From Thermodesulfobacteriota bacterium (GTDB taxonomy: Bacteria; Desulfobacterota; Desulfobacteria; Desulfobacterales; C00003060), in contig JAXHVD010000004.1 of assembly GCA_034189385.1 (NCBI GenBank), forward strand, positions 96,001 through 160,000: 64,000 nucleotides of DNA. The letters run 5' to 3'. Under the pieces are notes generated by a model. The model was given only the letters and a program-made list of their open reading frames with translations, did no database searches and had not been told where the DNA came from. Shown one piece after another: positions 21,854-38,935 of this stretch. The number at the start of each line of letters is the position of its first letter. Within the stretch, counting starts at the first letter, position 1. The position numbers and the translations under genes are program-made.

Positions 21854-21862
21854 GGGGGAGAA

Positions 21863-22128
21863 ATGACGGGTCTTTTATTCATTGACGATGAGGAAGGGGT
21901 GCGCCGCTCAATCATTCGAGCGCTAAAAAGGGAACCATATACCGTCTATACAGCTGAAGAAGGGGAGACAGGAATCCGACTGGTTGAAAACGAACCCTCC
22001 AAGATCACCATTGTGGTTTCAGATTACAAGATGCCAGGGCTTGACGGCCTAGAGACGCTGGCACGCATTGCCGCTATCAACCCTGAAGTCACCCGCATCT
22101 TGCTCACCGGTTACGCCACCATGGAAAG
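21863..22128 (+). CDS. 5' part (REC domain) of a split response regulator-adenylate/guanylate cyclase gene
   Basis: LFIDDE...VVSDYKMPGLDG...LLTGYATME, then abrupt stop in AT-rich DNA before the REC KP motif. Confidence 0.92.
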
Positions 22129-22279
22129 ATAAATAAAAAAGACATGAATAATATAATAGTGCTCTCGCTGTAGCTGAATCAAATTATAAATAGTTTATAT
22201 TTAAAGCAAAGTCTGCCGTTAATTTTTCGGTGGGCTTTTGTATTTTTTGGGGGAAATTTTTTCGACTCTTCAAAAAGCA

Positions 22280-22288
22280 TGTTATAAT
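22280..22288 (+). promoter_or_regulatory. Extended -10 promoter at the left end of the element
   Basis: TGTTATAAT in an AT-rich context. Confidence 0.55.
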
Positions 22289-22336
22289 ATTATGAGGAGC
22301 TGGAGATAACGTAAGAAGCTAAAAAAAACAATTCTG

Positions 22337-22396
22337 AAGGCCTCGTCGGGGAATCAAACTCCTAAGCGTTATCTCCTCCCGGCGGGGCCTTTTTTA
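22337..22396 (+). terminator. Leader terminator/attenuator-like hairpin
   Basis: AAGGCCTCGTCGGGGA / TCCCGGCGGGGCCTT followed by a T-run. Confidence 0.6.
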
Positions 22397-22423
22397 TTCT
22401 GTGATGAAAGGAGGTGAGAGAGG

Positions 22424-22582
22424 ATGGACGAAACTTTAGAAGAACGAGAACAGCTGGCCCACGAGGAAGCGAAACTCATAGCTCACGAGGAGGCTAAACA
22501 GGGCCAAGATTATGAGGAAGCCTATGAGGAAGCCTATGAGTCAGCATACAACGAGGCGTACCAAGAAGCTATGACGGACTAA
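22424..22582 (+). CDS. 52-aa highly acidic protein with YxxA repeats
   Basis: Strong SD (AAAGGAGGTGA); MDETLEEREQLAHEEAKLIAHEEAKQGQDYEEAYEEAYESAYNEAYQEAMTD; below the ORF-track length cutoff. Confidence 0.75.
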   Translation: MDETLEEREQLAHEEAKLIAHEEAKQGQDYEEAYEEAYESAYNEAYQEAMTD

Positions 22583-22600
22583 AGCAAAGGAGGAAATACA

Positions 22601-22966
22601 ATGAGTAACGAGGAAGAAGTAGAAAGAAGACATTGGTTGGAAGGGTATGTCAATGATGAAGATATGTCCGGTGAACCCACGTCACCGGCGGAGAAGCAGT
22701 ACGAAGATGCGCTTTGGAAAATGGGCTTCCAATATAGTCTTACAGATACAGGTTTAGTCTATAAAACTTGGGATGCTCAAGAGGCCACAGAAATCGTGGC
22801 TAAGGTGGCCGCGGTCGTTAGGGAATTGGAATTGGACGAAGATGCGTTTAGCCTGAGTCACACTATTCAACCCCAGTGCCCAAAGTGCGGAAGCCTTGGC
22901 CGTTTTTCTGATTTTCATTGTAGGGATTGTGGGGCTGAACTTTTGCCGAGTGAGTATTGTGACTGA
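22601..22966 (+). CDS. Acidic hypothetical protein with C-terminal Zn ribbon
   Basis: AAGGAGG SD; CPKCG...CRDCG. Confidence 0.75.
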   Translation: MSNEEEVERRHWLEGYVNDEDMSGEPTSPAEKQYEDALWKMGFQYSLTDTGLVYKTWDAQEATEIVAKVAAVVRELELDEDAFSLSHTIQPQCPKCGSLGRFSDFHCRDCGAELLPSEYCD

Positions 22967-23060
22967 ACTACTACAATAATTTTTGGGTGGGCGCTCCTGG
23001 AGGGTTTTGCCAGTCTCCTTCCCTTCGGGGGCGCTCCACCACACGATGAAAGGAGGTGAA

Positions 23061-24108
23061 ATGAGTTTTGAGTCAGTATTTCCACCAGACTATAAGCCGG
23101 GTTTGACTGTTCGGGGTGGCCCAGGAAAGCACAAAAGGATGGCTGAGAATCGCCAAGAAACGCTCACGAAGATTCGGGAGATCGACAGCCAAATTGACTT
23201 CAAGATGACGCTCCGTGGCTGGTGTTACATGTTAGAGCAAGAATGGGGCTTGGCCAAGTCCGACTTCAGCACTAAGGCAATGCGGTATTTCGGTGAGTAC
23301 CGAGAACGTGGGCAACTTCCCTTGGACTTCTGCCTCGAAGACGACAACCGAGCATTCAGCCAAGGAGAATCGCTTGTCGATGCCGTAGCACCTGATGACT
23401 TCGTGCAAGACGCTTTTGCTTCCTTGCGCGACATTCACACGTACTACAAGCCGCTATCCTTTTGGAACAACCAGAAATACTATATCGAGATGCTAGTTGA
23501 AAAGGCGGACCTCGTTTCACTATTCCGACCTATCTGCTCCAAGTTCAATATCCGAATTGCTAACACTCATGGAAATGCCAGCTATGGTCAGCGCTATGCC
23601 ATGATAAACCGCTTTCGGCAACATGAAGAAGAAGGTCGCAAGCCGGTGCTCTTGTATTGCGGCGACCATGACCCAAGTGGATTGATGATAAGCGATAGGC
23701 TAAAGCATAATTTCAAAAAACTGGAACTGGCAACAGGATGGAGCCCAGACAATCTGCTCATTGACAGGTTTGGGCTAAACTATGACTTCATTGAGAAGCA
23801 CAATCTTTCTTGGATTGACAGCTTGATAACGGCTTCTGGCGAGAATCTCGCTAGCTCGCGACACCATGACTATAAAAAAGCCTACGTGCAGAGCTACATC
23901 AATGAGTATGGTTGCAGAAAAGTTGAGGCAAATGCCATTGTAGTGAGACCGGAGATGGGGCGTAAACTTTGTTATTACAATTCTGCGCTACATCGACCTT
24001 CATGCCGTTGAGAATTTTAAATCTCAGATAAAGGATTCACAGCGAGTAGTTAGAACTTTAACTGAGGATATCCTTGAAGCTGTGGCGGTGGCGTTTATTC
24101 CATCATGA
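23061..24108 (+). pseudogene. Topo VI-A/DUF2399-like Toprim-domain protein with apparent 3' frameshift
   Basis: W.NQ.YYIEMLVEK and LLYCGDHDPSG Toprim motifs; ORF stops at 24011 but a second frame ILRYIDLHAVENF... stays open to 24108. Confidence 0.65.
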
Positions 24109-24223
24109 AGAGGCATTAGGAAAAAGGAGGCAAGAGAGATTTGGTACAAAAAAGTACCAAAGATAACCCCAAGAGAAAACACACAAAACCGGAGACAAAA
24201 AAACAGTTAGAGGAGGCAAGACA

Positions 24224-24790
24224 ATGACAAAAGACGGTAAAAAAGCGGTGGTCGTTTGGCTAGGAACAGATCCATTTCATGCTGAGAAATGCTGGCCTGC
24301 CGCCGCGAAGAGGCTTGGTTATGATGTTATCACTGAGAAAGACGTTAGGCAAGGTATTAGTCTGATGACAGCCGAACACCTTCAAGTACCACGTCGCAAT
24401 TACGAAGATCACGGTATAGACACACCTTACAACCATTGCAGGCAGTGCGGATGCTTTTTATGGGATGCACCGGGGCCATCACTGCTGGAAAGATGGAGCA
24501 AGCTATTTTTAAAAGCACATGAAATCGCTCAAAAGGTGGGCATGTCAATCGGCAAATACTACACTGCCCGAAATGGCTGGATAAGTGGTCGCACCTGGAC
24601 GGATGCTGAAGCGATAGAGGCAGTATGCCAAGACGAATATATAAGTGCACTGTGCGATTGGCTATTTATTATAAACGGTGAAGACATCCCCACTCTCGAA
24701 AAACCAGTCAAGGATGCCCGAATTACGCCTGATATTATTGAATGGCAAGATAGGGCGAATCAATACTTGGCAGATATTGGTCGGTGGTAA
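24224..24790 (+). CDS. Hypothetical protein (CxxC)
   Basis: GAGGAGG SD, 188-aa ORF. Confidence 0.65.
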   Translation: MTKDGKKAVVVWLGTDPFHAEKCWPAAAKRLGYDVITEKDVRQGISLMTAEHLQVPRRNYEDHGIDTPYNHCRQCGCFLWDAPGPSLLERWSKLFLKAHEIAQKVGMSIGKYYTARNGWISGRTWTDAEAIEAVCQDEYISALCDWLFIINGEDIPTLEKPVKDARITPDIIEWQDRANQYLADIGRW

Positions 24791-25045
24791 GGCTATTGGG
24801 TGAGATGATTAACACATCACACTCAACACACATGGGGCGGCGCTCAGAGTTCTGGTGCCGCCTCTGTTGTTTGGTGCTTTGTTGGGAACCGTGAAAAACG
24901 ACAAAAAACATGAAAGCTCTCTTTTTGGGCGCACTTTTTTTATAAGTATTTGTTTTTACTAGCTGTGAAATTAGCCTTGTCAATAATGCAATCTTCGAGA
25001 TCGCTTATTATATTAAAAATAAAAAGATTAAAGAGGTGTAGTCAA

Positions 25046-25243
25046 ATGAAGTCAAGGCTATGGGCAGTGTTACAAAACAGGAAACTGGAACAAAAGAAAG
25101 TCGCCGCCGAGCTGGGTCTGCACCATGTACGGTTGAACCAACTGTGCAACGGTAGGGAGCCGACCAGATTGGAGGCGAAAAAAATATGTGAGCATTTTAG
25201 TATGGATGAAAGCGACCTATTTTCACCAGTCCTATTTTTGTAA
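25046..25243 (+). CDS. XRE/Cro-like HTH regulator
   Basis: QKKVAAELGLHHVRLNQLCNGREP; GAGGTG SD. Confidence 0.8.
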   Translation: MKSRLWAVLQNRKLEQKKVAAELGLHHVRLNQLCNGREPTRLEAKKICEHFSMDESDLFSPVLFL

Positions 25244-25255
25244 GGAGCACAATTT

Positions 25256-25417
25256 ATGAACACAGACTATCTTCAGGAGAAATACCCGCTTCAACGCGTT
25301 GCGGAAAACCCTGTAAGGAACGGCCCGGGGATTGTGTGGCTGCTCGCGAAGCAGATCGAGACCAACAGCCTATTGAAAGCGATTTTGAAAGAACTAAAAA
25401 AAGATACAGATGAGTAA
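25256..25417 (+). CDS. 53-aa hypothetical protein
   Basis: AAGGAG SD; MNTDYLQEKY...LLKAILKELKKDTDE. Confidence 0.55.
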   Translation: MNTDYLQEKYPLQRVAENPVRNGPGIVWLLAKQIETNSLLKAILKELKKDTDE

Positions 25418-25551
25418 AACAGTTTTCACTGGACAAGGCTTTGCAAACCTTGCCCACAATCACCAACCGCCGCAGTCGGTAGGAATGACTTCTGACCTCC
25501 TAGTCTGGGTCCTTCCTCCGGCTGTGGTCACAATCAGACTAGGAGGAAGAT

Positions 25552-26166
25552 ATGCGAAGGAATGGGAAACAACCGAACGAGATCAACAAGGCCAAGATTG
25601 CTCAAGCTAGGAGCCAGCTTCTTAGGTGGCCAAAAGATGTGGTCAGCGCGGTTGTGGGTGACGTTTTCGAGATACTTGCACAAGAGGATGAGTTCTCCGC
25701 TGTCCGGGTTTCTGCTAAACCCTATAAATGGCCACAGTGGATTTACAGTACCAAAAAGCTTCGACACGTGATGAACAGGACTAGATTTCAAGACATGTAT
25801 AATTATCTTTGGCTCAACAAGTTCCCCTTCATCAAGAGGCATTCACACGTGTTCCTGAAGGTGGGGGCTGATGCAGCCGACATCCTGGTGAAGATACGAA
25901 CAAAGGACATGGCCAACAACCTGGACCCTCCTTGTTCGAAACAACTCGTGAATAAGTATTTGGCCTATTTCTCGCGTATCGGGATAATCGAAAAACGGGG
26001 CATCATTGCGTATCAGAACGTGTATTGCATCGCGAAACAGGGAAGCTTTCATGAGGTGATTTCAGACAATGGGACAAAACAGGTGGTGGAAAGGCCAAGA
26101 GTTCTGCCACTGCTTACGGCGAAGGCAAAGAGGGAGATCGAAGGTTTTGACACTATTTTCTCATAG
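25552..26166 (+). CDS. Basic hypothetical protein, possibly a wHTH replication protein
   Basis: AGGAGG SD; TKDMANNL..CSKQLVNKYLAYFSRIGII wHTH-like segment; followed by an AT-rich palindrome cluster. Confidence 0.55.
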   Translation: MRRNGKQPNEINKAKIAQARSQLLRWPKDVVSAVVGDVFEILAQEDEFSAVRVSAKPYKWPQWIYSTKKLRHVMNRTRFQDMYNYLWLNKFPFIKRHSHVFLKVGADAADILVKIRTKDMANNLDPPCSKQLVNKYLAYFSRIGIIEKRGIIAYQNVYCIAKQGSFHEVISDNGTKQVVERPRVLPLLTAKAKREIEGFDTIFS

Positions 26167-26170
26167 CTCT

Positions 26171-26400
26171 CATTATTCAGTACTGAATAATGAAATTATT
26201 CAGTGTGAAGTCACTGAATAATGGGAATCTTTGGGATATATTATAATAACTAGGGCTTAAGCAATGGCGGACCTTAATGTAATATATAATCTAATTCAAG
26301 TACCCTGTATATATATCAGCTTTTCCTTATACACTTTTCTCCTTCCAAGTATTCAGGAAGAAAAGTGTATAGGAAGTGGCGCTAAAGCGCCACCTCCTTT
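26171..26400. repeat. Cluster of palindromes/inverted repeats (origin-like)
   Basis: Perfect 22-bp palindrome CATTATTCAGTACTGAATAATG; ATTATTCAGTG-N6-CACTGAATAAT; TATACACTTTTCT/AGAAAAGTGTATA; GTGGCGCT-AA-AGCGCCAC. Confidence 0.8.
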
Positions 26401-26529
26401 TATTTATTCGTTCTGCTTAAATAGAGGGAGTGGTCCTGAATGAAACACAACCCGGTCCTGAAGAACACTAATCGACAAGGTGTCGCGCGCCGCTGCTGCT
26501 GGTGGTGGCAAAGGAGGAACTAGCAGACA

Positions 26530-26685
26530 TTGAAGACTACAGATCCCACTGAAAAGATATGCTGGCGCTGCCGCAGGGAGCATGAAGGACCATGCCCCTA
26601 TGCCGCCCATGCAACCGTTGACGACAAACACACCGGCGCTGATTGCTACATTGCGCCGGGCACAGAGGAGGACAAGAAGGAGTGA
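26530..26685 (+). CDS. 51-aa Zn-knuckle-like peptide
   Basis: AAGGAGGA SD followed by TTG; CWRCRREHEGPC; GTGA overlap with the next ORF. Confidence 0.5.
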   Translation: MKTTDPTEKICWRCRREHEGPCPYAAHATVDDKHTGADCYIAPGTEEDKKE

Positions 26686-26831
26686 ATAAAAGTACGGGAC
26701 GATGGATCGAGCCCATTGTAAAACCGGACCCCGAAGTGCAAGAGCTTCAGAAACGCTCGGGCAACTTTGACCCCCCGGTCAAGAGAAGACCAGGAAGACC
26801 AAAGGGGTCAAAGACCAAGAAGAAGAAATGA
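26682..26831 (+). CDS. Small basic protein with AT-hook-like motif
   Basis: RRPGRPKGSKTKKKK; ATGA overlap with terL. Confidence 0.6.
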   Translation: MNKSTGRWIEPIVKPDPEVQELQKRSGNFDPPVKRRPGRPKGSKTKKKK

Positions 26832-28558
26832 TTGTACCCAAGATAGACAGACCAACCACACAAAGACTCCTGAAGATCCTGCGGGCTTTTATCACAAATG
26901 AGCAGGAGCAGAGCATGTGGCCCGTTTTGGATTTGACAGTGGACATGCTTCTTGATGACCCAGAGTTTCACTATTACTACACTGACACGTTTGAGTTTTA
27001 TTTGGAAAATGGCATTCACAACCGGATGGCACTCCATGCTTTCATTCGCCTTTTCTGTGGGTTCGACATTACAAGGCGGGGGGGCGTCGGAAAAGAGCCG
27101 TTTTGCAGTCCCTTTGATTTTGTGGCTGTCTTATTCTTTCAGGAGTGCCGGGATGCGCTGGCCATGGGATCACGAGCCAGCGGCAAGACTCTTGCTCTGG
27201 CCGTTTTGATTTACTTGTGGGCACTTTTCTACCCCGAGTGCGAAACGACAACCTGCGCTGCGACTAAGGATCAGTCATCGCGGGCTTTTTTGTATTTGCG
27301 AAAACTATGTACGAGCAGCAATGCAAGCAACAAACTTCTTAGTTCAAAGCCGACCGCTAAAGCTATCAAATGGGGAAACGGCTCTAGCGTGGAAATGACT
27401 ACTTCAAGTTTGGAGGGAGCGAATGCGCTTCATCCCAGCAAACTCCTTGCCGACGAATCGGAACTTTTGGACTGGAGGGTGGTAGAGGAAATGCTCTCGT
27501 GTGCTATATCACAAGGGGACATACAGGCGAGCACGGTCTTTCTGTCAAGTAGGAAGTTTCTGGACGGACCATTTCAAAGGCTGCTTGAGATGGCAAAAGA
27601 AAATCCCAAGACATACAAAATCTTCAATTGGAGTGCGTGGCAGGCCGTTGAAAGGTGTATGCGGAAATGTGACGACAAGGTTCATGGCAGGTGCGAACTG
27701 CAAGAGCTATGCAAGGGGCGGCTCCGAAAGAGTGACGGCCACTTGGACCTAGAAGACTTCAAGGCGAAGGTACGCCTTCTTTCCGATGAAGTTCTAAAAA
27801 GTCAATGGTTGAATCTCAAGCCGGTTATCACTTCGACGGTGTTCAATAACTATTATGAACCGGAAGTCAGTCTGATTTCACAGCCCGAAGATTTTCATTA
27901 TGATTTCACAGTCTGCGGTATTGACTGGGGGTCAACCAAGGCCAGCAATCTTGTTTTTCAACGATGGCTCGTGGATGTGAGCGACCTTCGTGACGATGCC
28001 ACGGGCCATGTGGATGTTGATAGTTATAAGAAGCCGACACTGTATCTTGCCTATGAATACCGGTCCGCCACTTCGGACATGGCTAGGCTGGCCAGGGCTA
28101 TACTTGAAAGCCCCTATAGAGAGGACTATGAATTGATCTTTGTGGACCCTTCTGGCAAGAGCCTGCGAAATGAACTGGCGCGTTTTGGGATAGAAACAGA
28201 GACGCCACTGGTCACGGGAGTGCAAGAAGGAATTGAGGTTCTGAAGGGGTATCTGAAACCCTATTGGTCAGGCAGGAAGCGCAAGTCGTGCCTATACATT
28301 TTAGACGGTTATTATCACGGTGAGCCAGACCTGGAGCCCACGCACAAAGAGCTTCAACTGATGCGTCACGTCACAAAGCCAGACGGCACCTTGTCACAGA
28401 ATATAGTGAAGGCGCATGACCACGGTGTTGACGCGGCACGATACGCCATAACTGCCGTGCGAAGCGTCATTGAGAGCCTTTATGCCCAGGACTTTGACGA
28501 GGATTTGGGACAGCTTGAACAGTTTGCCGAGACTTTTGGGATTGAAATCTTGGCCTAG
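26828..28558 (+). CDS. Phage terminase large subunit
   Basis: Walker A GSRASGKT, Walker B LLADESE, RNase H-like nuclease GIDWG...VDPS...DHGVDAARY. Confidence 0.88.
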   Translation: MIVPKIDRPTTQRLLKILRAFITNEQEQSMWPVLDLTVDMLLDDPEFHYYYTDTFEFYLENGIHNRMALHAFIRLFCGFDITRRGGVGKEPFCSPFDFVAVLFFQECRDALAMGSRASGKTLALAVLIYLWALFYPECETTTCAATKDQSSRAFLYLRKLCTSSNASNKLLSSKPTAKAIKWGNGSSVEMTTSSLEGANALHPSKLLADESELLDWRVVEEMLSCAISQGDIQASTVFLSSRKFLDGPFQRLLEMAKENPKTYKIFNWSAWQAVERCMRKCDDKVHGRCELQELCKGRLRKSDGHLDLEDFKAKVRLLSDEVLKSQWLNLKPVITSTVFNNYYEPEVSLISQPEDFHYDFTVCGIDWGSTKASNLVFQRWLVDVSDLRDDATGHVDVDSYKKPTLYLAYEYRSATSDMARLARAILESPYREDYELIFVDPSGKSLRNELARFGIETETPLVTGVQEGIEVLKGYLKPYWSGRKRKSCLYILDGYYHGEPDLEPTHKELQLMRHVTKPDGTLSQNIVKAHDHGVDAARYAITAVRSVIESLYAQDFDEDLGQLEQFAETFGIEILA

Positions 28559-28570
28559 GAAATAGAATCA

Positions 28571-29341
28571 ATGGCAGATTATGACGAGAGAAAATTTGAA
28601 GAGGTTCTGAGCCTAGTAGGCAAAGGCAACACCCTGGACACGGCATGTTACAGCTCTGGAATCGAACCGAGGCGAGTGAGAAGTTGGATCAAAGCCAACA
28701 GAGGAACCTGCGGGTTGAAATATAAGCAAGCCAAGGCACGATTCATAACGGAGCTAAGAAGTCAGATGTTGGCAGCGCCGCCCGGAGACAAAAGAAACGC
28801 GCTTGCCAGGGAATTGGCTGCACATGATCCCAGCTTTGCGAGGAGCGTGGCACAACAGCACAAGCGGTTGATCGAGCAGGAAGACAAGGAAAGGGACAAG
28901 GCACTTGAGCAAACACTTGGCAGGGTTGATTATGGCTTCGCGGGATGGAAGCTGAAGAAGCGGGACGGTGTAAGGAAGCTAAAGGCGGGCAATCTTGACG
29001 AGAAGGCACTTAAAACAATCTGGTCTTGGAGTCTGGCCGGAGAAGACAAGAAGGACATCAAAGAGAGATACGACTTCGAGCAGAGGATTCTTGGAAATGC
29101 TACCAAGCAGAGCATGAAACAAGTAGCAGAAAAAATAAAGGCGCTGATGGTGGGAAGGAACAAGATGAGCAAGGACGAGGAGCGACTTCTCACTGAAAAG
29201 ATAGTCACAGCAAAAAAGACCAAGAGTCCTTATAAACTGAAGGATTCAAATGGAGGGGTGATAGAGCTTCCAGCGATTGAGCTAGAGTGGAAACAGGAAA
29301 AGAAAAAGACAGTCAGGAGAAAGAAGAAAACAAGAAGATAA
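28571..29341 (+). CDS. Hypothetical protein with terminase-small-subunit-like N-terminal HTH
   Basis: VLSLVGKGNTLDTACYSSGIEPRRVRSWI...YKQAKA. Confidence 0.5.
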   Translation: MADYDERKFEEVLSLVGKGNTLDTACYSSGIEPRRVRSWIKANRGTCGLKYKQAKARFITELRSQMLAAPPGDKRNALARELAAHDPSFARSVAQQHKRLIEQEDKERDKALEQTLGRVDYGFAGWKLKKRDGVRKLKAGNLDEKALKTIWSWSLAGEDKKDIKERYDFEQRILGNATKQSMKQVAEKIKALMVGRNKMSKDEERLLTEKIVTAKKTKSPYKLKDSNGGVIELPAIELEWKQEKKKTVRRKKKTRR

Positions 29342-29951
29342 AGAGAGAATAGCGTGATTCGAAACGCTGGCAGGGATGTGCCTCCTTTTTCGGAAGTGGC
29401 CTCCTTTTTGGGTTGGCTAAACAATTCTCAATAGGATTACAAATCCAATAAGAACGTTTAATGCAATTATGTAATTAAACATAAGCATCACCTCTTTGAA
29501 AAGGATTTCCCTGCCAGCGTGCATAAGATACCAAAGGTAGGAAGTTTTGTCAAGGAGGGGGAAGAATAAGAAAGGATGATATAGTGATTGAAGATGGGGG
29601 GTATATGATAGTGGTCAAGAAGCAGGCACTAGAAAAATGCCTATATACCACACAAATAGAAAGCTTTTCTGAGTGCTCTATTTGCTACATAGGGACTGAG
29701 AGGGAAACCACATAAGAACATGGAAGCAGAGACAGGTTATAAGCACTTAAAATATATTAGAAAACAGGAGGAACAGCTTTCAAGTCTACATATTGGGGTG
29801 TGGCTACTCAGCAAGTCCACGCCCAGCTTGTATTTGAGAGCGACACCATCGGCAAACATAAGCTACAAAAGGCTTTACAAATGACATCGGAACATATTAA
29901 AATATGGCTGTTTCAGAGCCTAAAACACGCAACAGGAAAGGGGCAAATCGG

Positions 29952-30638
29952 ATGAAAACAGCCGTCGGTTATGTCAGGGTTTCAACCATCGAACAGGCCC
30001 AACAGGGTGTTAGCCTAAAGAACCAGCAGGCGAAGATCAAGGCATGGGCGAAGCTCAACGGATATGCTTTGAAAGACGTATATCGTGACGAGGGAATCAG
30101 CGGAAAAGCTATGGACAACCGGGACGGACTACAGAGTGCGCTCAAGAGTGTGGGCAAAGGCGATGCGCTGGTTGTTTACAGCCTGTCGAGGATGGCCCGG
30201 TCAACCAGGGATGCCCTGGCTATCGCGGAGGCGCTACAACACAAGGGCGCAGATCTGGTGAGCGTCACTGAGCACATAGATACGACAACTGCGGCGGGGA
30301 AAATGGTGTTCCGAATGCTGGCCGTGCTCAATGAGTTCGAAAGGGACCAGGTGTCTGAGCGCGTCACACAGGCGCTGGCCTACAAGCGCGGCAAGAATGA
30401 ATGGGTGGGCCGTGTACCGTACGGTTTCAGGGTACATGCTGGAAAGCTGGTGGAGGACACAGAACAGATTGAAAGCATCAAGAAGATGAAACGGCTTCGG
30501 AAAAGGGGCAAGACTCTGCGCGACATTTCAAAGACGTTTGGGGTATCACCCGCGTATGTTTTAAGGGCTGTAAATGTCAACCTGAGGACGCTGAAAGCTA
30601 AGTATCTCAACGGATCACGGCTTCAGCCTGTTTATTAA
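29952..30638 (+). CDS. Small serine resolvase/invertase with C-terminal HTH
   Basis: GYVRVST, DEGISGK, RDGL, SLSRMAR, EFER. Confidence 0.93.
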   Translation: MKTAVGYVRVSTIEQAQQGVSLKNQQAKIKAWAKLNGYALKDVYRDEGISGKAMDNRDGLQSALKSVGKGDALVVYSLSRMARSTRDALAIAEALQHKGADLVSVTEHIDTTTAAGKMVFRMLAVLNEFERDQVSERVTQALAYKRGKNEWVGRVPYGFRVHAGKLVEDTEQIESIKKMKRLRKRGKTLRDISKTFGVSPAYVLRAVNVNLRTLKAKYLNGSRLQPVY

Positions 30639-30902
30639 ACAAATGGTTTTTAAACAAAAAGGGTTTGAAATGGACTTAAACAGATTAAATGTGAAACGGT
30701 CACAGTGATATGACAACCGGTCAAACTGCCCCAGGCAACCAGCTCTTCCCACTCCGCAGGGCGAGGGACGGGGGCGCCGTCTTACATCACCACCGAAAAT
30801 CAAACGGGCGATGGACGGGGCACTCCGCAGAAAATTAAATTATATTAGCTGTCCCCGAAGCACAAGGAAAGGAGAAATACTACAAGAGGAGCGTGAAGCA
30901 CA

Positions 30903-31070
30903 ATAGCCAGTAAAGACACGTATTGCATATTCTGCAACAGACCCGAGCCACAGTACACCCCGCCAAACGCAGACACAGAAATCGTCTGTAGCCGGTGCGT
31001 TCAGCGCCTAGTAAACGCCACCCAGGAACAACTCTTGACCCTGTACAAGGTAGCACTGGCACGGGACTAA
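30903..31070 (+). pseudogene. Zn-finger gene remnant
   Basis: CIFC...CSRC reading frame starting at ATA after GAGGAG; an apparent continuation in another frame suggests a frameshift. Confidence 0.45.
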
Positions 31071-31147
31071 GCAGGTAGCCGACGAGCTGGCCGGAAGCTG
31101 GCTGCTACCGGAAACGCTAGAACAAATAGAAGAGGAGGAAGGAGACT

Positions 31148-31363
31148 GTGAGCAAGAAACCGGAGAGACTAGACCAGATCTGGAGCGAGCGAGACCTTTG
31201 CCGTCGTCTAGACCTGCCCGTCACCAAGAACGGTAAAAGCGCGAGGCTGGGGTATTGGATCAGGGGCGGCCTGAACTACGTCGAGAAGTCAGGCAAGCGG
31301 TATTTCTTTGAATCTGATGTCATTGACTACCTGTGGAGCCGATATGAGAACCGAGACGAATAA
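31148..31363 (+). CDS. Excisionase/MerR-like small wHTH DNA-binding protein
   Basis: WSERDLCRRL...LGYWIRGGLNYV...KRYFFESDVIDYL; strong SD. Confidence 0.65.
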   Translation: MSKKPERLDQIWSERDLCRRLDLPVTKNGKSARLGYWIRGGLNYVEKSGKRYFFESDVIDYLWSRYENRDE

Positions 31364-31521
31364 GGGCTGTAAGTTGCAAACCACACACACGGTTGGGGGT
31401 AGGTTTTGACTAGCTTTTATATAACTTTAAGGGGGTATTTTTCCGGGTTAATAGGGTTACATGCCTTTTCCTGAAAACCCCCGTTAAACAGCGGATAAGA
31501 AGCTTTTACGGCGTATTTACA

Positions 31522-31758
31522 ATGACTCAACAACAGACAGACAGGATCATTCTCAACGGCAGAATCACGGAGAACCAGGCCTTCGGCAAGTGGGCAGTGG
31601 AGCTGAACCACCGCTCCGGCTGCACGACCTTGGCGTCGTGTTACGCATCCGGAAGACTGCGGCTTGCGTCAATCCGCATGCTGCCCGGTGATTGGGTGAA
31701 AGTGGAGCTTTCGCCCTATGACCTGAGTCGAGGCCGGATTCTATATCGTTTCAAATAA
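31522..31758 (+). CDS. infA: Translation initiation factor IF-1 homologue (divergent, element-borne)
   Basis: [36 protein letters not shown] matches the IF-1 C-terminal signature. Confidence 0.85.
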
Positions 31759-31958
31759 CTACTCTACCCAGCGCAGCATTATCGTGGTGGCTTCCTCGCT
31801 GTGTCTGGTCCGGCAGAACCTAAGTCAGCTGTCGGAGGATTCATAAGGAAGCCACTAACACGCACGGTCGCAACCTCCAAAACCGGGGCGGCCCGTGCCA
31901 CCGCAGTTAGAATCGGGCCGCCCCATACTTTTAAACTGACAAAAGGAGTGAAAGAAAA

Positions 31959-32639
31959 ATGACAACAGAATATTGGCAGATACCGGCGGATCAGGATTTC
32001 CCAGCCGCGTCGATAAAAGAGGATTCTGATTTCGCGCATTCAACGGTAAAACAGATTGGCTATGATCTGCTGAGCGCGGCTTTTAGGCAGTATATGGCCG
32101 ACAGCGGCATCGACGTTGATGAGTTTGTCACCCGGCCAGGCCAGGGCCATTGGATAGTGAAAAAGCAGAAGATGAATGAGCACTTTGACCCATCCGACCT
32201 GAAATCAAGCCGCTGGGTGCAAGAGAAGACAAATCTCCTGAAGTGCTTTCTTGACGGCTTGCAGTGGCATTTTGACGGCTTTTATTGCGTTGAGCTTCCC
32301 CACGGGTCGTACCCTAAAATTGAAACATTGCTGCAACTCGAACGGGATCTTGGTGCAGCACCCGGCACCCTGGTTGACAAGCGCCTGTTTACGATCGAGG
32401 CCCAGACCGCTCTAAAACTGCTTGACAAGAAGGGCAATCCGTCAAAGCGTGCGAAGCGGTTGCCGCGACTCAAAGCCGCTGAGATGCGCCAGGAATTGAA
32501 GGCCAAGGTCAACGCCGCCAGAGTGAAAGAGGATGCTCTGAGGCGAAAGAAAGAGGCAACGGCAAAAGAACGGCAATTCAATAAAAAGTTCAAGGCGCTA
32601 CGCGAGAAGTTCCAACCGCTCCTGAACGCCTTGCAGTGA
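31959..32639 (+). CDS. Hypothetical protein with basic coiled-coil C-terminus
   Basis: AAGGAG SD, 226-aa ORF. Confidence 0.7.
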   Translation: MTTEYWQIPADQDFPAASIKEDSDFAHSTVKQIGYDLLSAAFRQYMADSGIDVDEFVTRPGQGHWIVKKQKMNEHFDPSDLKSSRWVQEKTNLLKCFLDGLQWHFDGFYCVELPHGSYPKIETLLQLERDLGAAPGTLVDKRLFTIEAQTALKLLDKKGNPSKRAKRLPRLKAAEMRQELKAKVNAARVKEDALRRKKEATAKERQFNKKFKALREKFQPLLNALQ

Positions 32640-32645
32640 CAATCA

Positions 32646-32745
32646 GAAACTAAAAGGCAGACTATTAGAAAACTAATAGGCAGACTATTAGAAAACTAGT
32701 ATATAGTATTAATATAGATTAATAATACAGATTAATAATACAGAA
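32646..32745. repeat. Iteron-like direct repeats plus AT-rich repeats
   Basis: AGGCAGACTATTAGAAAACTA x2 (23-bp period); AGATTAATAATAC x2. Confidence 0.8.
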
Positions 32746-32813
32746 GAGATTAACTTCTAAAGAAGTTAATAGGGCTGACAAGCCAGCCCAAGAAGCTAAG
32801 AAGGAGTTTTATA

Positions 32814-33050
32814 ATGGCTGTAAAAGAAACACCGTATTTCAAAGGACTGCTCGTGCCCACAAGTTGCGGCAGAAGGTCTACAGCATTTGAGATCCGAGAC
32901 GAACATAATAAAATAGTTGGCCGCATGGTCGTTGAGACACGAGCGTTAGTTGACCTGAGCGACGTTCCCCAGGACAGGGCGAAGTTTGTAGACGTGCAGC
33001 ACCTGCCGTCTCGGCTCAGTTTCCACTTAGATAACATGGCTGCGATATGA
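32814..33050 (+). CDS. Hypothetical protein
   Basis: AAGGAG SD, 78 aa. Confidence 0.6.
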   Translation: MAVKETPYFKGLLVPTSCGRRSTAFEIRDEHNKIVGRMVVETRALVDLSDVPQDRAKFVDVQHLPSRLSFHLDNMAAI

Positions 33051-33070
33051 GGCCAAAGGAAGGTGATTGA

Positions 33071-33298
33071 ATGTATAAGAACGTTACCGAATTTCACAAT
33101 GGACTGTTCGACAATAGCAAGAGTAAAGATGCTGTGGAAGGCTTCACCCGGAAATGCGAAGGCAGAAACCCCATGACTAAGGAATCTGTCATGGACGGCT
33201 TTGTGAAGGCCGCAACCGGCAAGCCGCCTAGCTTGGAACCGAAGCCGAAGCGGCCTGTTGACACCGTTGACAGGTTCGTGGCCGCATTGAAGGAATAA
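33071..33298 (+). CDS. Hypothetical protein with internal repeat (DAVEGFT / VMDGFVKA / VDRFVAA)
   Basis: AAGGTG SD, 75 aa. Confidence 0.6.
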   Translation: MYKNVTEFHNGLFDNSKSKDAVEGFTRKCEGRNPMTKESVMDGFVKAATGKPPSLEPKPKRPVDTVDRFVAALKE

Positions 33299-33460
33299 AA
33301 TAATAGGAGGCGTTCCTTGCTTCCCAAAAGGAACGCGGCGAGCGGCAGGGTTTTTGGCTTACCTCCTTTACCCTGCTGCTCGTCGTCGCTTAATCTCGGT
33401 GTGTGCGGTCCGGGGTCCCTCGGATACCTTGAGCGAGCCGAGGCGACCGCCGCCGCGCAC

Positions 33461-33595
33461 CTACTTTTTGCCGCGCTTGACGGCATGCCAGTCGATGTTG
33501 TGATGCTCTTTGAGGTACAGGATCACGGCATTGCGTAGGAAGCTCGTCAAGCTGCGGTTCTCGCTGTCGGCAGCCTTAACTGTGTTGTTGCTCAA
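33461..33595 (-). pseudogene. Arc/CopG ribbon-helix-helix remnant
   Basis: Manual translation KAADSENRSLTSFLRNAVILYLKEHHNIDW; N-terminal strand apparently missing. Confidence 0.5.
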
Positions 33596-33927
33596 TTCAC
33601 GTCTTGCTTTCTATGTGATCCATGAGTAATGCAATGCTCATAACAAGAGCCCCCACAATCAACCAATGATAGTCCTCCTCTTCCTTGTCATTACTGGCTT
33701 GCATTTTAGTCGCAATACTGCGTATGTAGTCTATTGATACGCCAAGTCTGGCCTTCGGTGTACCTGCTTCCTGTGCACTAGGTGTCAACTCAATGCGCTC
33801 CAAACGTTGTGAGAAATAATCTGCGAACTGTTCAAGAAGCTTTCCTATCGTCTTTACGCCACCCGCAGATCAGGAAAAAGGCGAAGGCACAGGCGAGGGC
33901 GTATAGGATCTTCAGGAGGATCATGGG

Positions 33928-34770
33928 TTATGCAGTACCTCTTCTGCTCCTTCTCCTGAGTCCTGCTAGACCTATGAGACCAGAGCCAAGGAGGAGGACG
34001 GTTGCGGGTGCGGGTACTGCATTAGCCGTAACTGTGATGTTGTCAAACTCACCGGCACCGATGCGATAGTCTTGATCCATGCTCGCTCCATCAATGCCGA
34101 GAAGCTTTTCAGCCAAAATGGCATAGTGACCGGTTTCATAAGTTTCAGTTCCAAAGTCAGCTATCCCCCAGACTTCAAGGTTGTAGGCGTCGAGGATTAT
34201 CGAAAGGGACACTACTTGATCGCAACCCCCATCAAAATATTCCAGGTTGTCGAGTGATCCGGCTTCGGCTCCCGTGATATATCTGGCGTCAAAGATCCAA
34301 CCGCCTCCCGTATACGGTGGCCAATGACCACCTGGATTGTTGCTCATGGCCCATCCCACTTGCCCTTTCCCCTCGGAAGTGGAATAGAACCTCATGGCAG
34401 AATTGTGGGCTTGCGGTGAATCCGTGGTCGCATATGCATCGAAGGTCAGAGTATAGACACTGCTGCAGGTCGTCAATGATTCGGGAAACAGATTGAAGGA
34501 GACGGCTAGACCACTGCATCCGTCTGTCAGCCGACCATTGGCGACCATGGAACCCATGTTAGAGCTATTTCCAACAAGTGTCCTGTCGCCTGTCCATCCA
34601 CCTTGACCTGAGAGGTTGCTTCCCTCAGCGTAACTCTCAAAGTCCTCATGAAAGATAGTTGCCGCCGTACAAAAAGACCCCAGAGGTAACACTAGAATTG
34701 CGGCCAGTGCGACCAGTAGGAGTTCACCCTTCAAAATACGTAAAGCCCGAAAGGGTTGTCTTGTTTTCAT
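33928..34770 (-). CDS. PEP-CTERM sorting-domain exported protein
   Basis: Signal peptide; C-terminal VPAPATVLLLGSGLIGLAGLRRR. Confidence 0.92.
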   Translation of the reverse strand: MKTRQPFRALRILKGELLLVALAAILVLPLGSFCTAATIFHEDFESYAEGSNLSGQGGWTGDRTLVGNSSNMGSMVANGRLTDGCSGLAVSFNLFPESLTTCSSVYTLTFDAYATTDSPQAHNSAMRFYSTSEGKGQVGWAMSNNPGGHWPPYTGGGWIFDARYITGAEAGSLDNLEYFDGGCDQVVSLSIILDAYNLEVWGIADFGTETYETGHYAILAEKLLGIDGASMDQDYRIGAGEFDNITVTANAVPAPATVLLLGSGLIGLAGLRRRSRRGTA

Positions 34771-35103
34771 TTCTCCCCCTTTGCAGAAAACAGAGATGAA
34801 ATCGTGAAGGAATAGTTCTGAACTCCCAACAGAACAGACAGCGCCCTGTCAGGAGCTAGGTAGGCAGATTTTTAGGTGTGTCTCCATGAGGGTGACCCTG
34901 GAATGATGTAAAAATACGGCCAAGAAAGCCGTCTTTTGACTGCCCGACTCCTCCAATATGCCGTATACCACTCTGCATGTGGGAAATCAATGGCACAAAG
35001 TGACCATTTTTTGACGCAAAAACTACCTATGGTTTCACGCAAAAACTACGTAGTGGAGTGGATCAGGAAGAAAGGTTGGGTCAGCTTGGAGAGATTTGAA
35101 AGG

Positions 35104-35259
35104 CTATTTCTTGGGCTTCTTCTTGTACTTTTTCAGAACGTCGCGGATCGCCTCTTCCAAGACCTCGTTCTGGCGTTTTTCCAGCGTAGCGGCCAGGATC
35201 TTGAGTTCTTTTAGAAGGGCCTTGTCGATGGTCGTGTTGTACATCTTGCGGTCAGTCAT
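35104..35259 (-). CDS. Ribbon-helix-helix regulator divergent from the recombinase
   Basis: MTDRKMYNTTIDKALLKELKILAATLEKRQNEVLEEAIRDVLKKY (51 aa); below the ORF-track length cutoff. Confidence 0.8.
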   Translation of the reverse strand: MTDRKMYNTTIDKALLKELKILAATLEKRQNEVLEEAIRDVLKKYKKKPKK

Positions 35260-35510
35260 GATATACGGGTATCAGAAGCCGGTACATTTTTCAATAAATA
35301 TAGAATTATCGGTATCTTTTTCTTGCTTTTTGTGTTATAGTTTTATAGTTGTCTATACAATCACACACTTCCAAACAGTACGATGAAAAAGAGTTTTAAA
35401 AACAATAGGTTCCCGAGATTCCCGGTGTCCGTGAGGTCCGGGGCGCCTGTACTGGCGTGGAAGGTCTCGGGTTCTTTTTTGGGTAGTCTCAATTAAGAGA
35501 GGGTCAGAAA

Positions 35511-37325
35511 ATGAAAGCAGCCATCTATTGTCGAGTATCAACACCGACTCAGAAAGAGGCCGAAACCATAGAAGGCCAGAGGGTCGCATTGACAAAATAC
35601 GCGGAAGACCGGGGCTGGGAGATTGTGGACGTATATGAAGACGAGGGCCTTAGCGGCAGTTTCCTAGAAGGCCGCAGGGATTTTCTACGGCTGCTTGAGG
35701 ACATGGGAAAGGGAGAGTTTGAAATCCTTCTGGTGGCCGAACACAGCCGTATCACCCGCTCTGACGACCCGATGGAAGGCGCTCTAATACTGAAGACTCT
35801 ATTGGACAACGACATTAAGGTGGCCTCTCCTGGGGCTGGCCTGGAGTCTGCTGATACCTTTGAAGGTCGCCTCATGTTCACGTTAAAAAGCATGTTCGCC
35901 GCAAAAGAAAAGACCGACATTCTTGAACGCTTCAAGAGAGGCAAAGCGAAGTTTCTTGAAAAGGGCATCTACCCCAACGCGAGAGTTTGTTATGGCCTAC
36001 AAAAGGTGGTTCAACGGGGTAAAAACGGCAAAGTCATAAAGCACGAGATCGTCATCAACGAGGAAGAAGCGGCGGTCTTGCGGTCGGTCTATGATTGGAT
36101 AGTCAAGGACGGTCAGACCATCAACTGGGCGGCTGCCGAGTTGAACCGCCTAGGCATAAGGACAGCGCAAGGTAAAAGGTGGAGTTCTCCCAGGCTTTCT
36201 GAGATTCTGCGGAACGAGGCTTTATGTGGCACAATGTATTGTAACAGGTACGTGTGGAAGACCACCGGCATCAGCCCCAAAGGGAAACAACAGCAGAAGC
36301 TTTTAAAGGTCAGGCCCAAGACGGACCCAGATGTAATTCATATTTATGTCCCAGCCATATTCAGCAAAGACGAGTTCAAGCTGCTGCGGGATACGGTCAA
36401 GAACAACCGCCGCCGTGCACGGTCAAAGAAGGACAGCCCATTCTTGCTTACTGACAAGTTGAAATGCGGCATCTGCGGTGCTCGTCTAGTCGGTGCTTAT
36501 GGTGGAAGTCCAGGTCAGAAAAAAGTGAACTATTATATATGCCACAACAGAAAGAAGTCGCCCCAGAGGCGAGAGCCAGACGAGAAGCCGTGCTGGCTGC
36601 CCATGGTAAACATGTTATCCCTTGACCAGAAGGTCGAACGTGATGTCTTGATTGACCTGTTTATGCACCCAAAGCGGACCCTGAAGAGCTGGTCGTCGGT
36701 GGATCAGAATAAGCGCCGCCGGGCCAAGCAGTTGAGGGATAAGGTGGCCCAGGCCGAGGAACGTATTGAAAAGTTGAGGAAAAAGAAAAAGGCACTGCTT
36801 CAGAAGGCCATAAGCGGTGTTGCATGGGAGGGGTGGAATGAGGCCGATATCAAAGAGGCCGTTGAAGGTGAGAGGGTAAAGCTGGACCAGCAGATCACCC
36901 TAGAAACCGAACGCAGGGACACGGCCAAAAAAGAGGCTGAAGCCTTAGAGGGAATGATTGAGAGGGCAAAAAAGGTTCGCAATGGGTCCAAGGAATTGGA
37001 AGAGGTGGCGGCTAGGCTTGGTGAGAAGATCTTGAATATGACCGTTGCTGAAAAACGGACCTTGTTGGACTATATCATCCCATCCGGCCATTATATCACC
37101 GTGGAGCCTATTTTAGATGACCGGGAAATCTGGTACGACAAACCCAAAGGGGTGGCCCGGACACTTAAGTGTGAGTGGATGGTGATGCCTGTCACGGTGC
37201 CTGATTTTAACTTAAAGGGGCTGGTTGCTGCCTTGCGGGAATACGATAAAACCGGAGTGATCCCAAAGGCTTCTGTATATTTAATGCAAAATAAGCATTT
37301 AAAGCGCCATTCAGGCAACCAATGA
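35511..37325 (+). CDS. Large serine recombinase (integrase)
   Basis: IYCRVST catalytic Ser, DEGLSG, recombinase domain (YG, LNRLG, W...ILRN..CG), Zn ribbon CGICG...YYIC, coiled coil; last 6 codons lie beyond the right att core. Confidence 0.95.
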   Translation: MKAAIYCRVSTPTQKEAETIEGQRVALTKYAEDRGWEIVDVYEDEGLSGSFLEGRRDFLRLLEDMGKGEFEILLVAEHSRITRSDDPMEGALILKTLLDNDIKVASPGAGLESADTFEGRLMFTLKSMFAAKEKTDILERFKRGKAKFLEKGIYPNARVCYGLQKVVQRGKNGKVIKHEIVINEEEAAVLRSVYDWIVKDGQTINWAAAELNRLGIRTAQGKRWSSPRLSEILRNEALCGTMYCNRYVWKTTGISPKGKQQQKLLKVRPKTDPDVIHIYVPAIFSKDEFKLLRDTVKNNRRRARSKKDSPFLLTDKLKCGICGARLVGAYGGSPGQKKVNYYICHNRKKSPQRREPDEKPCWLPMVNMLSLDQKVERDVLIDLFMHPKRTLKSWSSVDQNKRRRAKQLRDKVAQAEERIEKLRKKKKALLQKAISGVAWEGWNEADIKEAVEGERVKLDQQITLETERRDTAKKEAEALEGMIERAKKVRNGSKELEEVAARLGEKILNMTVAEKRTLLDYIIPSGHYITVEPILDDREIWYDKPKGVARTLKCEWMVMPVTVPDFNLKGLVAALREYDKTGVIPKASVYLMQNKHLKRHSGNQ

Positions 37326-38049
37326 GGGGCTCGACGGTTTTCTTACAAAACCCTTTGACAACAGGGAATTGCGCAACAAGATTCAAGACATTGTCATAAA
37401 AAAGCGACTGAAGCAATTTGTCTCTAATCAAGTCTATGAGGAAATTAGAAACGATCCTGCTGTCATGAACCCCAAAAAACAGAAAGTGACCATACTGTTT
37501 AGTGATATTAGAGGATTCACCGAGATGTCTTGGAAAGTCCCACCTGAAAAGATTGCAGAATTTCTAAATGACCACTACTTTACACCCTTGGGAGAAATCG
37601 CTTATCTGTACAACGGCACTGTAGATAAACACATTGGCGACTGTATCATGGTGATATACGGATCGCCTGTCTCCCATGAGGACGATATTGTCAGGGCTAT
37701 TGAATCGGCAATTCATATGCAGAAGACTTGTAAGGCCATCAGCAAAGGATTGAAAAAAACAAATGGATTCAGGCTCCGTGTTGGAATCGGTATCTGTGCG
37801 GGCGAGGTAGTAAGTGGTGTCTTTGGCTCCTTGAGGAAAAGAGAATACACGGCCTTCGGGCTGCCGGTCAATATTGCCGCTCGTTTAGAAAAAATGGCAA
37901 AGGGCGGGGAGATATTGGTCAGTGGTACGACCTACAAAGAGGTGTCCCACCACTTTGCGGCCGAGAGGATGACGCCGGCCATCCCCGTCAAGGGCTTGGA
38001 TGAGCCTATTCCCATCTATCGGATTCTGGGCCCTAAGGCTTCAACTTGA
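37305..38049 (+). CDS. 3' part (end of REC plus class III adenylate/guanylate cyclase domain) of the split gene
   Basis: AIQATNEGLDGFLTKPF (REC end); TILFSDIRGFT, DKHIGDCIM, YTAFGLPVNIAARLE. Confidence 0.93.
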
Positions 38050-38935
38050 CGCAATGGCCCTTTTCAAGGTTACGGCCAAAAATGGGGACGACTTCCGCTC
38101 GGTCCTCTTTCACATGAGTAACCCTGACTTCGCCAATCTTGAGGCCTGGAACCAGATAGACTTTATCACCTTGGCCCCTTATCGGTTCGGCCCCTCCAAA
38201 GACCTCCAGCACATCTCCAGTGGCAAGCCCGGCATCCTTGCCTGTCGAAAGGGTCAACCTTTTGCCGGAGTCTGCAACAAGATACCCCTTCCAAGGTTCT
38301 TTGGCTAAACGCTTGCATACGAGCTTCACTGTCTTTGAGATGATCTTGGAGAGGAGGGGGCGTGCCATCGCCTCATTGTAACTGCCTGTATTTTTTGCTT
38401 CTTTCCAAACTCCTTCTGGAATCTCCACTTCATCAATGACCATCTCATCAAAGAGAATGGCGGTAGTCTCCGTATCATAGCACCTTACGCGGAAAGAGGC
38501 CCGCACGAGCGTTCGTGTTTGCCTGAATCCCCAGATGCCACGCTTTGCGGTGTTATACTCGATGTCCACAATGCTTTGTTCCAGTACCGCGCCAAGACCA
38601 TAGATCCTGCCAAGGTTCCCAAGGGTCATGGTGTCGATCCGATCTGAAAGACGATGGGGAATCTCTTTCAGGGCCTTTTGGACTTCTCGGGAATCTATGA
38701 TGATAATGCCGTCACAGTGTCTGGAGAGAGATTTCATTAACTGGTTGTGGGCCGCCACCTGGAAATCGTCCCCTCCAAAACCAGAGTCGTTTATGCTGGC
38801 CATGAAAGCTATCTTCTTTTTCAAGGCCCCTCCCTTGCCCATAATGTCCGCACCTATCTTATGGGCGGTGGCGCAACCGGCTACCGACAAAAGGCACACA
38901 AACAAGGCAGCTATTATACGGGTACTCTTCCCCAC
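38033..38935 (-). CDS. Lipoprotein (CsgG/FlgT-like architecture)
   Basis: Lipobox VAGC; C-terminal GKDAGLATGDVLEV. Confidence 0.65.
   Translation of the reverse strand: MGKSTRIIAALFVCLLSVAGCATAHKIGADIMGKGGALKKKIAFMASINDSGFGGDDFQVAAHNQLMKSLSRHCDGIIIIDSREVQKALKEIPHRLSDRIDTMTLGNLGRIYGLGAVLEQSIVDIEYNTAKRGIWGFRQTRTLVRASFRVRCYDTETTAILFDEMVIDEVEIPEGVWKEAKNTGSYNEAMARPLLSKIISKTVKLVCKRLAKEPWKGYLVADSGKRLTLSTGKDAGLATGDVLEVFGGAEPIRGQGDKVYLVPGLKIGEVRVTHVKEDRAEVVPIFGRNLEKGHCVKLKP

Follow-up and report, generated by a model that had tools for sequence, protein, structure and literature searches.

A clade of large serine recombinases whose genes overlap their own attachment site and whose C-terminal tails differ between the integrated and the predicted circular form

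What becomes of an integrase whose gene reads through its own attachment site, and does the C-terminus that it takes from the host matter to the enzyme? The question is raised by a 64,000-nucleotide stretch of DNA from a Thermodesulfobacteriota bacterium (the window), in which the ORF of a large serine recombinase (35511–37325, + strand; 604 aa in its integrated form) crosses the right junction of the element that encodes it at position 37304. A sequence-only reading of the locus had proposed this overlap, and our analysis bears it out: the integrated gene ends in RHSGNQ and a TGA stop (37305–37325, + strand) that come from an alternative frame of the host cyclase gene. The same reading had suggested that a state-dependent tail could tune the stability or directionality of the enzyme. 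Our results uphold the state-dependence of the C-terminus, and give the tuning weak support at best, the integrated tails being random and the circle tails having no ssrA-like end. In our judgement the locus is probably a compact overlap of a gene with attP, in which the tail swap has little regulatory effect.

The element and its attachment site

The integrated element (22129–37304; 15,176 bp) interrupts a response-regulator/cyclase gene. The 5΄ part of this gene (21863–22128, + strand) is a receiver ORF of 89 codons, cut at codon 89, that ends abruptly at 22132 with a stop present in the integrated state (22130–22132). The cyclase frame resumes at 37305 in the 3΄ part (37305–38049, + strand), where Pfam and the restored ORF place the rest of the receiver, a linker and a class III adenylate/guanylate cyclase domain. 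In silico deletion of 22129–37304 restored a 336-aa ORF with receiver (REC) and cyclase domains. The word AAAG, present at the left (attL, 22125–22128, + strand) and at the right (attR, 37301–37304, + strand), is the only one common to both junctions at which the host frame can be closed again to give the residues of relatives, and the host gene runs uninterrupted across the junction in 17 of 19 relative loci (49–60 of 67 bases identical), the remaining two giving no match over it. Contigs from runs X1 and X3 lack exactly 15,176 bases, with four letters that fit either side. Both look like other strains rather than excision products; the X1 contig that joins the empty site differs by 23 other letters, and thus represents another strain. 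A 4-bp repeat by itself is at chance level; what supports the boundaries is the 336-aa ORF regained on deletion, the intact loci of relatives and the joints in the read contigs. The circle junction was not found in the contigs of four runs, searched over the whole element and, with likeness 80, at attR, and this is no proof of its absence since contigs drop rare forms.

Excision at codon 89 would restore a signalling gene, as intervening elements do. This codon of the dus-adjacent REC-cyclase gene is a target common to three different elements, in both orientations. Two further loci touch on the same gene. In one genome (G110 C2:3583–47630; L200, L201) the REC-cyclase gene is split near codon 112, elsewhere than codon 89, by a phage-like insertion of 44 kb that bears an IS-like transposase gene at its end, and no recombinase of the clade described below was found in its two end regions. 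In another (G327 C76; L202:4127–6823) a second, partial copy that begins at about residue 87, near the targeted codon, comes after a full REC-cyclase gene.

By Pfam and PHROGs, the cargo of the element comprises a terminase-like gene, a small serine resolvase, a topoisomerase-like ORF, an HTH protein, an IF-1 homologue, a PEP-CTERM protein and an Arc-like gene. Among the 15 proteins scanned against PHROGs, none was recognised as a capsid or tail protein, and no second full-length copy of the recombinase was found elsewhere in the genome. An Rfam scan of 21800–38300 gave no match, and promoter and terminator scans gave results at chance level. A repeat at 34787–35051 adjoins the PEP-CTERM gene and recurs elsewhere in the genome, on several further contigs, as well as on many read contigs. 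Near the left end, at 22340–22400, a G+C-rich inverted repeat with a T run behind it is seen by eye and is absent from the output of the terminator scan.

The crossover falls at a codon boundary, as codon 598 (Lys) ends exactly at 37304. The crossover dinucleotide would be the AG at 37303–37304, the last two bases of codon 598, a placement taken from the same register in two related elements (G219 and G873, described below). On the element side, the P arm (37275–37302, + strand), which also encodes about the last nine element-derived codons of the recombinase, forms a dyad with the arm at the far end. The attP dyad matches at 12 of 28 positions, which is weak, and at 21 of 28 in G219; the core is 4 bp long here and 2 bp in G219 and in one G873 copy (C1). 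The att layout of large serine integrases, with a very short core and short sites with dyad arms, fits these sites. At the other end of the element, the P΄ arm (22129–22173, + strand) would, read in the frame that starts at 22129, complete the gene in the circle. The nine-residue circle tail claimed from the sequence alone has to be corrected, because 22156–22158 is ATA (Ile) and the frame stays open; the predicted tail is INKKDMNNIIVLSL, 14 residues with a TAG stop at 22171–22173, giving a circle-form enzyme of 612 aa.

Three more features lie close to these arms or to the recombinase gene. A 27-nt segment at 22196–22222, 70 bp inside the left end, is 78% identical to the P arm (37276–37302), and could be either the remnant of an att arm or an additional site for the integrase to bind. 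An Arc-like (ribbon-helix-helix) gene (35104–35259, – strand) is divergent from the recombinase; its protein is common to the G219 element (41% identity) and, via G219, to a further relative (L197), despite different cargo, and it is a candidate regulator or directionality factor. A 71-aa ORF (31148–31363, + strand) has by eye the look of an excisionase-type winged helix, gave no match in Pfam or PHROG, and is a further candidate recombination directionality factor (RDF).

A fixed crossover codon in related recombinases

Resolvase (PF00239), recombinase (PF07508) and zinc-ribbon (PF13408) domains all score above the Pfam cut-off in the recombinase, which also carries a coiled coil and a clade-specific C-terminal appendix; it matches phrog_95 (E 3e-90), and its NCBIfam matches, to CcrB, CcrC and XisF, are all sub-threshold. 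The catalytic serine S10 and the zinc cysteines C319, C322, C344 and C361 are invariant in 16 of 16 clade sequences. The AlphaFold model of the 604-aa form (mean pLDDT 87, alignment of 32 sequences) has long helices at residues 399–435 and 444–508, and is confident to about residue 590, with pLDDT 84 at 581–590, 54 at 591–600 and below 50 at 597–604. Its whole chain matches in fold (Foldseek E 3e-21; VIA Z 21.9, rmsd 14.5, 486 aligned) the solved large serine integrases SPbeta, Bxb1, phiC31 and LI (PDB 9dxh, 9iu2, 9tep, 4kis); Bxb1 and phiC31 are named in the PDB descriptions themselves, and 9dxh and 4kis we take to be the SPbeta and LI integrases. The solved integrases listed align to model residues 563–574 at most, and the clade has about 25–30 extra residues past this range, including a conserved helix and a Y-x-K-T-G motif. 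This clade-specific stretch (37212–37304, residues 568–598) lies mostly outside the range aligned with solved integrases; the swapped part falls outside both that range and the confident part of the model.

The clade to which the recombinase belongs is small, its members being 29–43% identical to this protein where measured and sharing the C-terminal Y-x-K-T-G motif. Counted from the tyrosine of the motif, the crossover lies 21 residues downstream, the dinucleotide being the last two bases of codon 21. Whether homologues also carry att within their last codons had been raised together with the proposed overlap, and they do: in five of the five other copies with a placeable junction, the crossover lies in the same codon. 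This register is shared at four kinds of target (REC-cyclase, PIN-domain and HU/IHF genes and an intergenic repeat) and is kept across enzymes only 35–42% identical; such strict conservation shows that the overlap is maintained.

The copies differ in their integrated tails. In G219 (L112:9866–19536), which belongs to another family, the codon targeted in the window is occupied, in the corresponding host gene, by an element of 8.66 kb whose cargo differs and whose core is GC; its recombinase has an integrated tail of 17 residues and would have a circle tail of 20. In G873 there are two element copies, 96% identical in DNA, whose enzymes are 95% identical and have different integrated tails. The C1 copy lies antisense in a PIN-domain gene (restored ORF 143 aa) and gives a tail of 11 residues; the other copy lies in an intergenic repeat upstream of a gene that is presumably hisA-like, and gives a tail of five; the predicted 15-residue circle tail is identical in both. 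In L197, whose contig covers just the recombinase end of the element, an HU/IHF gene on the opposite strand is broken at the register, and host DNA supplies the TGA itself, which leaves a tail of zero residues. The last case, P0002, is known from its protein sequence alone: its 35-residue tail is an antisense translation of the REC half of the cyclase gene, starting in register, with 63% identity to a relative locus (L009; E 1e-13, in a small local database) and 17 of 35 residues in common with the host gene of the window. Far element ends are missing for G1069, G1126, L197, L198 and L199, so no circle tail is readable there.

The two G873 copies (C1:102847–121060, L207–L209; C3:210623–199954, L210–L212) have neither the same central dinucleotide (AA versus AT) nor the same inner P-arm bases, and over 8 bases those of C3 agree with the host arm. 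The clade as a whole shows AG, GC, AA, AT or CT as its dinucleotide. These differences suggest that targeting is relaxed, as in transposons, and that the core is overwritten. The 31-residue tail of P0090 appears by eye to be the antisense of a gene start with its ribosome-binding site, which suggests another antisense insertion. Some candidates did not hold. A putative 8-bp repeat at the register in G981 was rejected, the same word occurring a third time inside the element, and no empty-site relative of G981 was found; a pattern match in L196 arose by chance; and length differences within the pairs P0004/P0236 and P0093/P0238, considered as alternative tails, are actually N-terminal or due to truncation.

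Among 20 distinct clade sequences, the distance from the motif to the end of the protein is 19, 19, 19, 20, 21, 23, 25, 25, 26, 26, 27, 27, 32, 34, 37, 38, 45, 51, 52 and 56 residues. Three of these lengths were counted by eye; the G981 and G1069 enzymes, which end like P0096 and P0107, were counted once; P0093 and L199 (truncated), P0110 (a false motif match), P0197 (a fragment of P0239) and 13 aligned proteins that lack the motif were left out. The sequence-only reading had set homologues with stops upstream of att against its proposal. There may be a few: four of the 20 end at 19–20 residues, 1–2 codons before the register, if these ends are real, as they were read from proteins without their DNA, where a true stop and a contig end look the same; for two of the four, a second record has the identical end.

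The clade is rare. Overlapping genome draws showed it in 2 of 401 genomes of the order, 2 of 401 of the phylum, and 3 of 201, 2 of 37, 1 of 36 and 2 of 36 in the others. One clade protein is labelled Desulfatiglandaceae (phylum Thermodesulfobacteriota) by its source, which points to a host of the sulfate-reducer type. Three scans of viral contigs gave no member, one of them yielding distant relatives (about 22–44% identity) and the other two nothing; phage and plasmid records gave none close (22–31% identical among the best matches listed), and there was no close member among the 80 loci kept from genome contigs.

Orientation also differs, the recombinase being sense to the host gene in this element and in G219, and antisense in P0002, L197 and the C1 copy of G873. 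This bears on a role at the level of RNA, in which the transcript of the integrated recombinase would enter the 3΄ half of the host gene and yield a receiver-less cyclase or an antisense RNA, the circle supplying the proper transcript end. Just downstream of the recombinase there is indeed a 226-aa ORF with a TTG start (37369–38049) that holds the whole cyclase domain, and a simple scan found no terminator-like site on the + strand between the two genes. The host frame, however, is closed by a TAA immediately before the core, and the mixture of sense and antisense insertions stands against it as well; since both target and orientation differ across the clade, such a role is not the general reason for the overlap, and we regard it as improbable.

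Tails of the integrated and the circular enzyme

The integrated tails, of 6, 17, 11, 5, 0 and 35 residues, have no sequence in common. They share nothing and are dictated by whatever host DNA follows the crossover, and so carry no selected signal. It could be argued that RHSGNQ itself is functional and was selected through the choice of target, as a single codon of the REC-cyclase gene serves three elements as target. But the tails which these elements acquire there, of 6, 17 and 35 residues, are unrelated, and one is read from the antisense strand; other targets yield 0, 5 and 11. Tail diversity largely refutes a function for the host-derived residues, for which we see hardly any chance.

The circle tails require closer attention. 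Three can be reconstructed, INKKDMNNIIVLSL, NHNKQQYNIMPIYLMSNSLK and KYSSNDNNLLIAVSF, of 14, 20 and 15 residues. All three remain open for at least 14 codons, in DNA of 22–30% GC, with a joint shuffle probability of 0.014, and the other two frames at these sites close within 0–9 codons; beyond the att arm, the open length is at chance level (joint 0.45). Each tail starts polar and has a hydrophobic stretch at positions 9–14. With a free window, the p-values of this patch are 0.033, 0.235 and 0.076 (Fisher 0.021); with the att arm fixed, so that codons 11–14 alone are scored, they are 0.15, 0.25 and 0.076 (Fisher 0.070). Across codons 11–14 the DNA is identical at 1–3 of 12 bases, and pairwise the tails share 1–4 of 14 residues. 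The Asn-Ile/Leu common to positions 8–9, inside the att arm, likely reflects the symmetry of the DNA. The p-values are overstated because the three elements are related, and as the pattern had also been seen before it was tested, the patch is suggestive at most.

Nonpolar C-termini destabilise proteins. The hydrophobic patch could be a degradation signal or a docking segment that is present in the circle form and removed on integration, so that the enzyme made by a free or incoming element would be short-lived or differently tuned, and that of the integrated copy stable. The polar start and hydrophobic stretch found in three of three elements agree with this, as do the register fixed across the clade, the precedents of phage Mx8 (PMC6070905, PMC4701971) and of the BPs repressor (PMC4557955), in the text available from these papers, the hydrophobic residues at the end of two of the three circle tails, and the hydropathy of the last five residues, which is +3.1 (this element) and +2.5 (G873) in circle forms versus –2.3 (this element), –0.4 (G219) and –2.1 (G873 C1) in integrated ones. 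On the other hand, an integrated tail can be hydrophobic by chance, as in P0002 (+1.8), and the circle tail of G219 ends polar, with its last five residues mostly so (–1.04). An ssrA-like end is absent from all three, which end in VLSL, NSLK and AVSF, the host tmRNA tag being ADDYNYALAA. Residues 8–10 can be attributed to the symmetry of the att-arm DNA, the signal past the arm is not significant (p 0.07), the sample is three related elements with a pattern seen prior to the test, and four of 20 clade proteins apparently stop before the crossover. The model of P0088, whose tail resembles a circle form, has pLDDT below 50 at 571–585; it lends docking no support but says little either way, as the alignment carries no signal there. 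We consider a function of the circle-only tail possible but rather unlikely. In its strongest version, the clade would consist of multi-target integrases with a built-in state switch, in which the far arm of attP encodes a hydrophobic degron or docking signal found in the circle only; the crossover being fixed at one codon whatever the target, such a signal would always be deleted on integration. We hold this to be unlikely.

We return to the compact overlap with a near-neutral swap, which we hold to be the most likely reading. As the recombinase gene overlaps its own att site, only the residues after codon 598 are replaced on integration, and as all predicted folded parts lie upstream of the crossover, the swap is likely minor; all known functional parts would thus be intact in the integrated and the circle form. 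We propose that one attP arm also serves as coding sequence for the short helix with which the enzyme's fold ends, predicted at 587–596 here (with low confidence) and at 561–567 in P0088, and that this coding role of the arm would be why the genes of the clade all reach 19–21 residues past the motif. After the crossover, the integrated enzyme reads on through host DNA until the first stop. The 14-residue circle tail would be the native ending of the element and at most mildly constrained, and the enzyme would work with any tail. Directionality in large serine integrases is established as att geometry plus an RDF, at least in the portions of the literature available here, and the direction of the reaction, integration or excision, likely comes from the pair of att sites and a separate directionality factor and not from the tail. 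The length of the circle tails, their hydrophobic patch and the conservation of the register speak against a wholly neutral swap, as does the lower activity reported for the swapped form in Mx8, and the confidence of an AlphaFold model is blind to degrons.

Known overlaps and the meaning of the swap

The overlap layout and the swap of C-termini are already known from other integrases. Among serine integrases, those of the streptococcal rumA-ICEs exchange the 3΄ ends of their genes on integration, with a change in the length and sequence of the C-terminus and a frame shift; the authors propose a functional difference by analogy with Mx8, and the available text holds no test of it (Ambroset et al. 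2016, PMC4701971). As far as that text goes, they share with the present recombinase the resolvase, recombinase and zinc-ribbon architecture, short direct repeats of which one lies inside the integrase gene, and a protein-coding target, a likeness of layout for which we claim no kinship in sequence. The present element, by contrast, is no ICE but a small island with a terminase-like gene; several targets, in both orientations, are used across the clade, and 6 residues are swapped against 14. In the ssrA islands of Dehalococcoides, the 3΄ end of dsiB always overlaps attL, with the stop outside the island and diverging C-termini, and both a trivial reading and a circle-only function are offered in the accessible part of the report (McMurdie et al. 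2011, PMC3146451). DsiB is again a serine recombinase with the 3΄ end of its gene over an att site, alike by layout; by the same source it targets tmRNA, whereas the sites entered by this clade lie in protein genes and an intergenic repeat.

More distant cases differ in the enzyme or in the extent of the change. In Myxococcus phage Mx8, attP lies inside the integrase gene and integration creates a new C-terminus (PMC6070905, PMC4701971, PMC4383910); according to the passages available, 13 residues take the place of 112, and a loss in activity is reported (PMC4701971). Mx8 has a tyrosine recombinase that loses a large part, whereas the serine recombinase of the window exchanges 6 residues against 14 and loses no predicted folded part. 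The sequence-only reading had drawn its analogy from mycobacteriophages. In phage BPs, recombination at an intragenic att site does alter a C-terminus, as here, removing 33 residues, and, as excerpts of the report describe it, the viral form carries an ssrA-like tag (PMC4557955); that gene encodes a repressor and not a recombinase, and the circle tail predicted here is not ssrA-like; closer precedents are found among the serine integrases themselves. The SSV1-type suicidal tyrosine integrases of archaea also have att within the gene, in a compact integration module, and by the available account integration splits that gene in two (PMC8371274), while here 598 of 612 residues (about 98% of the circle form) stay contiguous. 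The available parts of four further papers (PMC10083194, PMC12924846, PMC4430133, PMC9382460) added nothing on gene/att overlap. The tndX gene reportedly overlaps the end of Tn5397; our comparison makes no use of it. We found neither this clade nor a functional test of the swap in a serine integrase in the literature covered, which was not queried by a clade name and left most subscription papers outside its scope.

What does the overlap mean for these recombinases? The clade offers a clean test set, with one fixed crossover codon, six natural integrated tails (0–35 residues), three circle tails and, in G873, two 95%-identical enzymes with different integrated tails in a single genome. Integrases mined for genome engineering from integrated elements are annotated with host-derived junk tails, and the attP form is the one to test. 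Should the circle tail prove to be a docking segment or a degron, the accepted model of attP/attB and RDF would gain a further layer of control over directionality. Were the state switch true, the enzyme of the free element would be unstable or differently directed and that of the integrated element stable, and this would be the first such switch defined in a large serine integrase.
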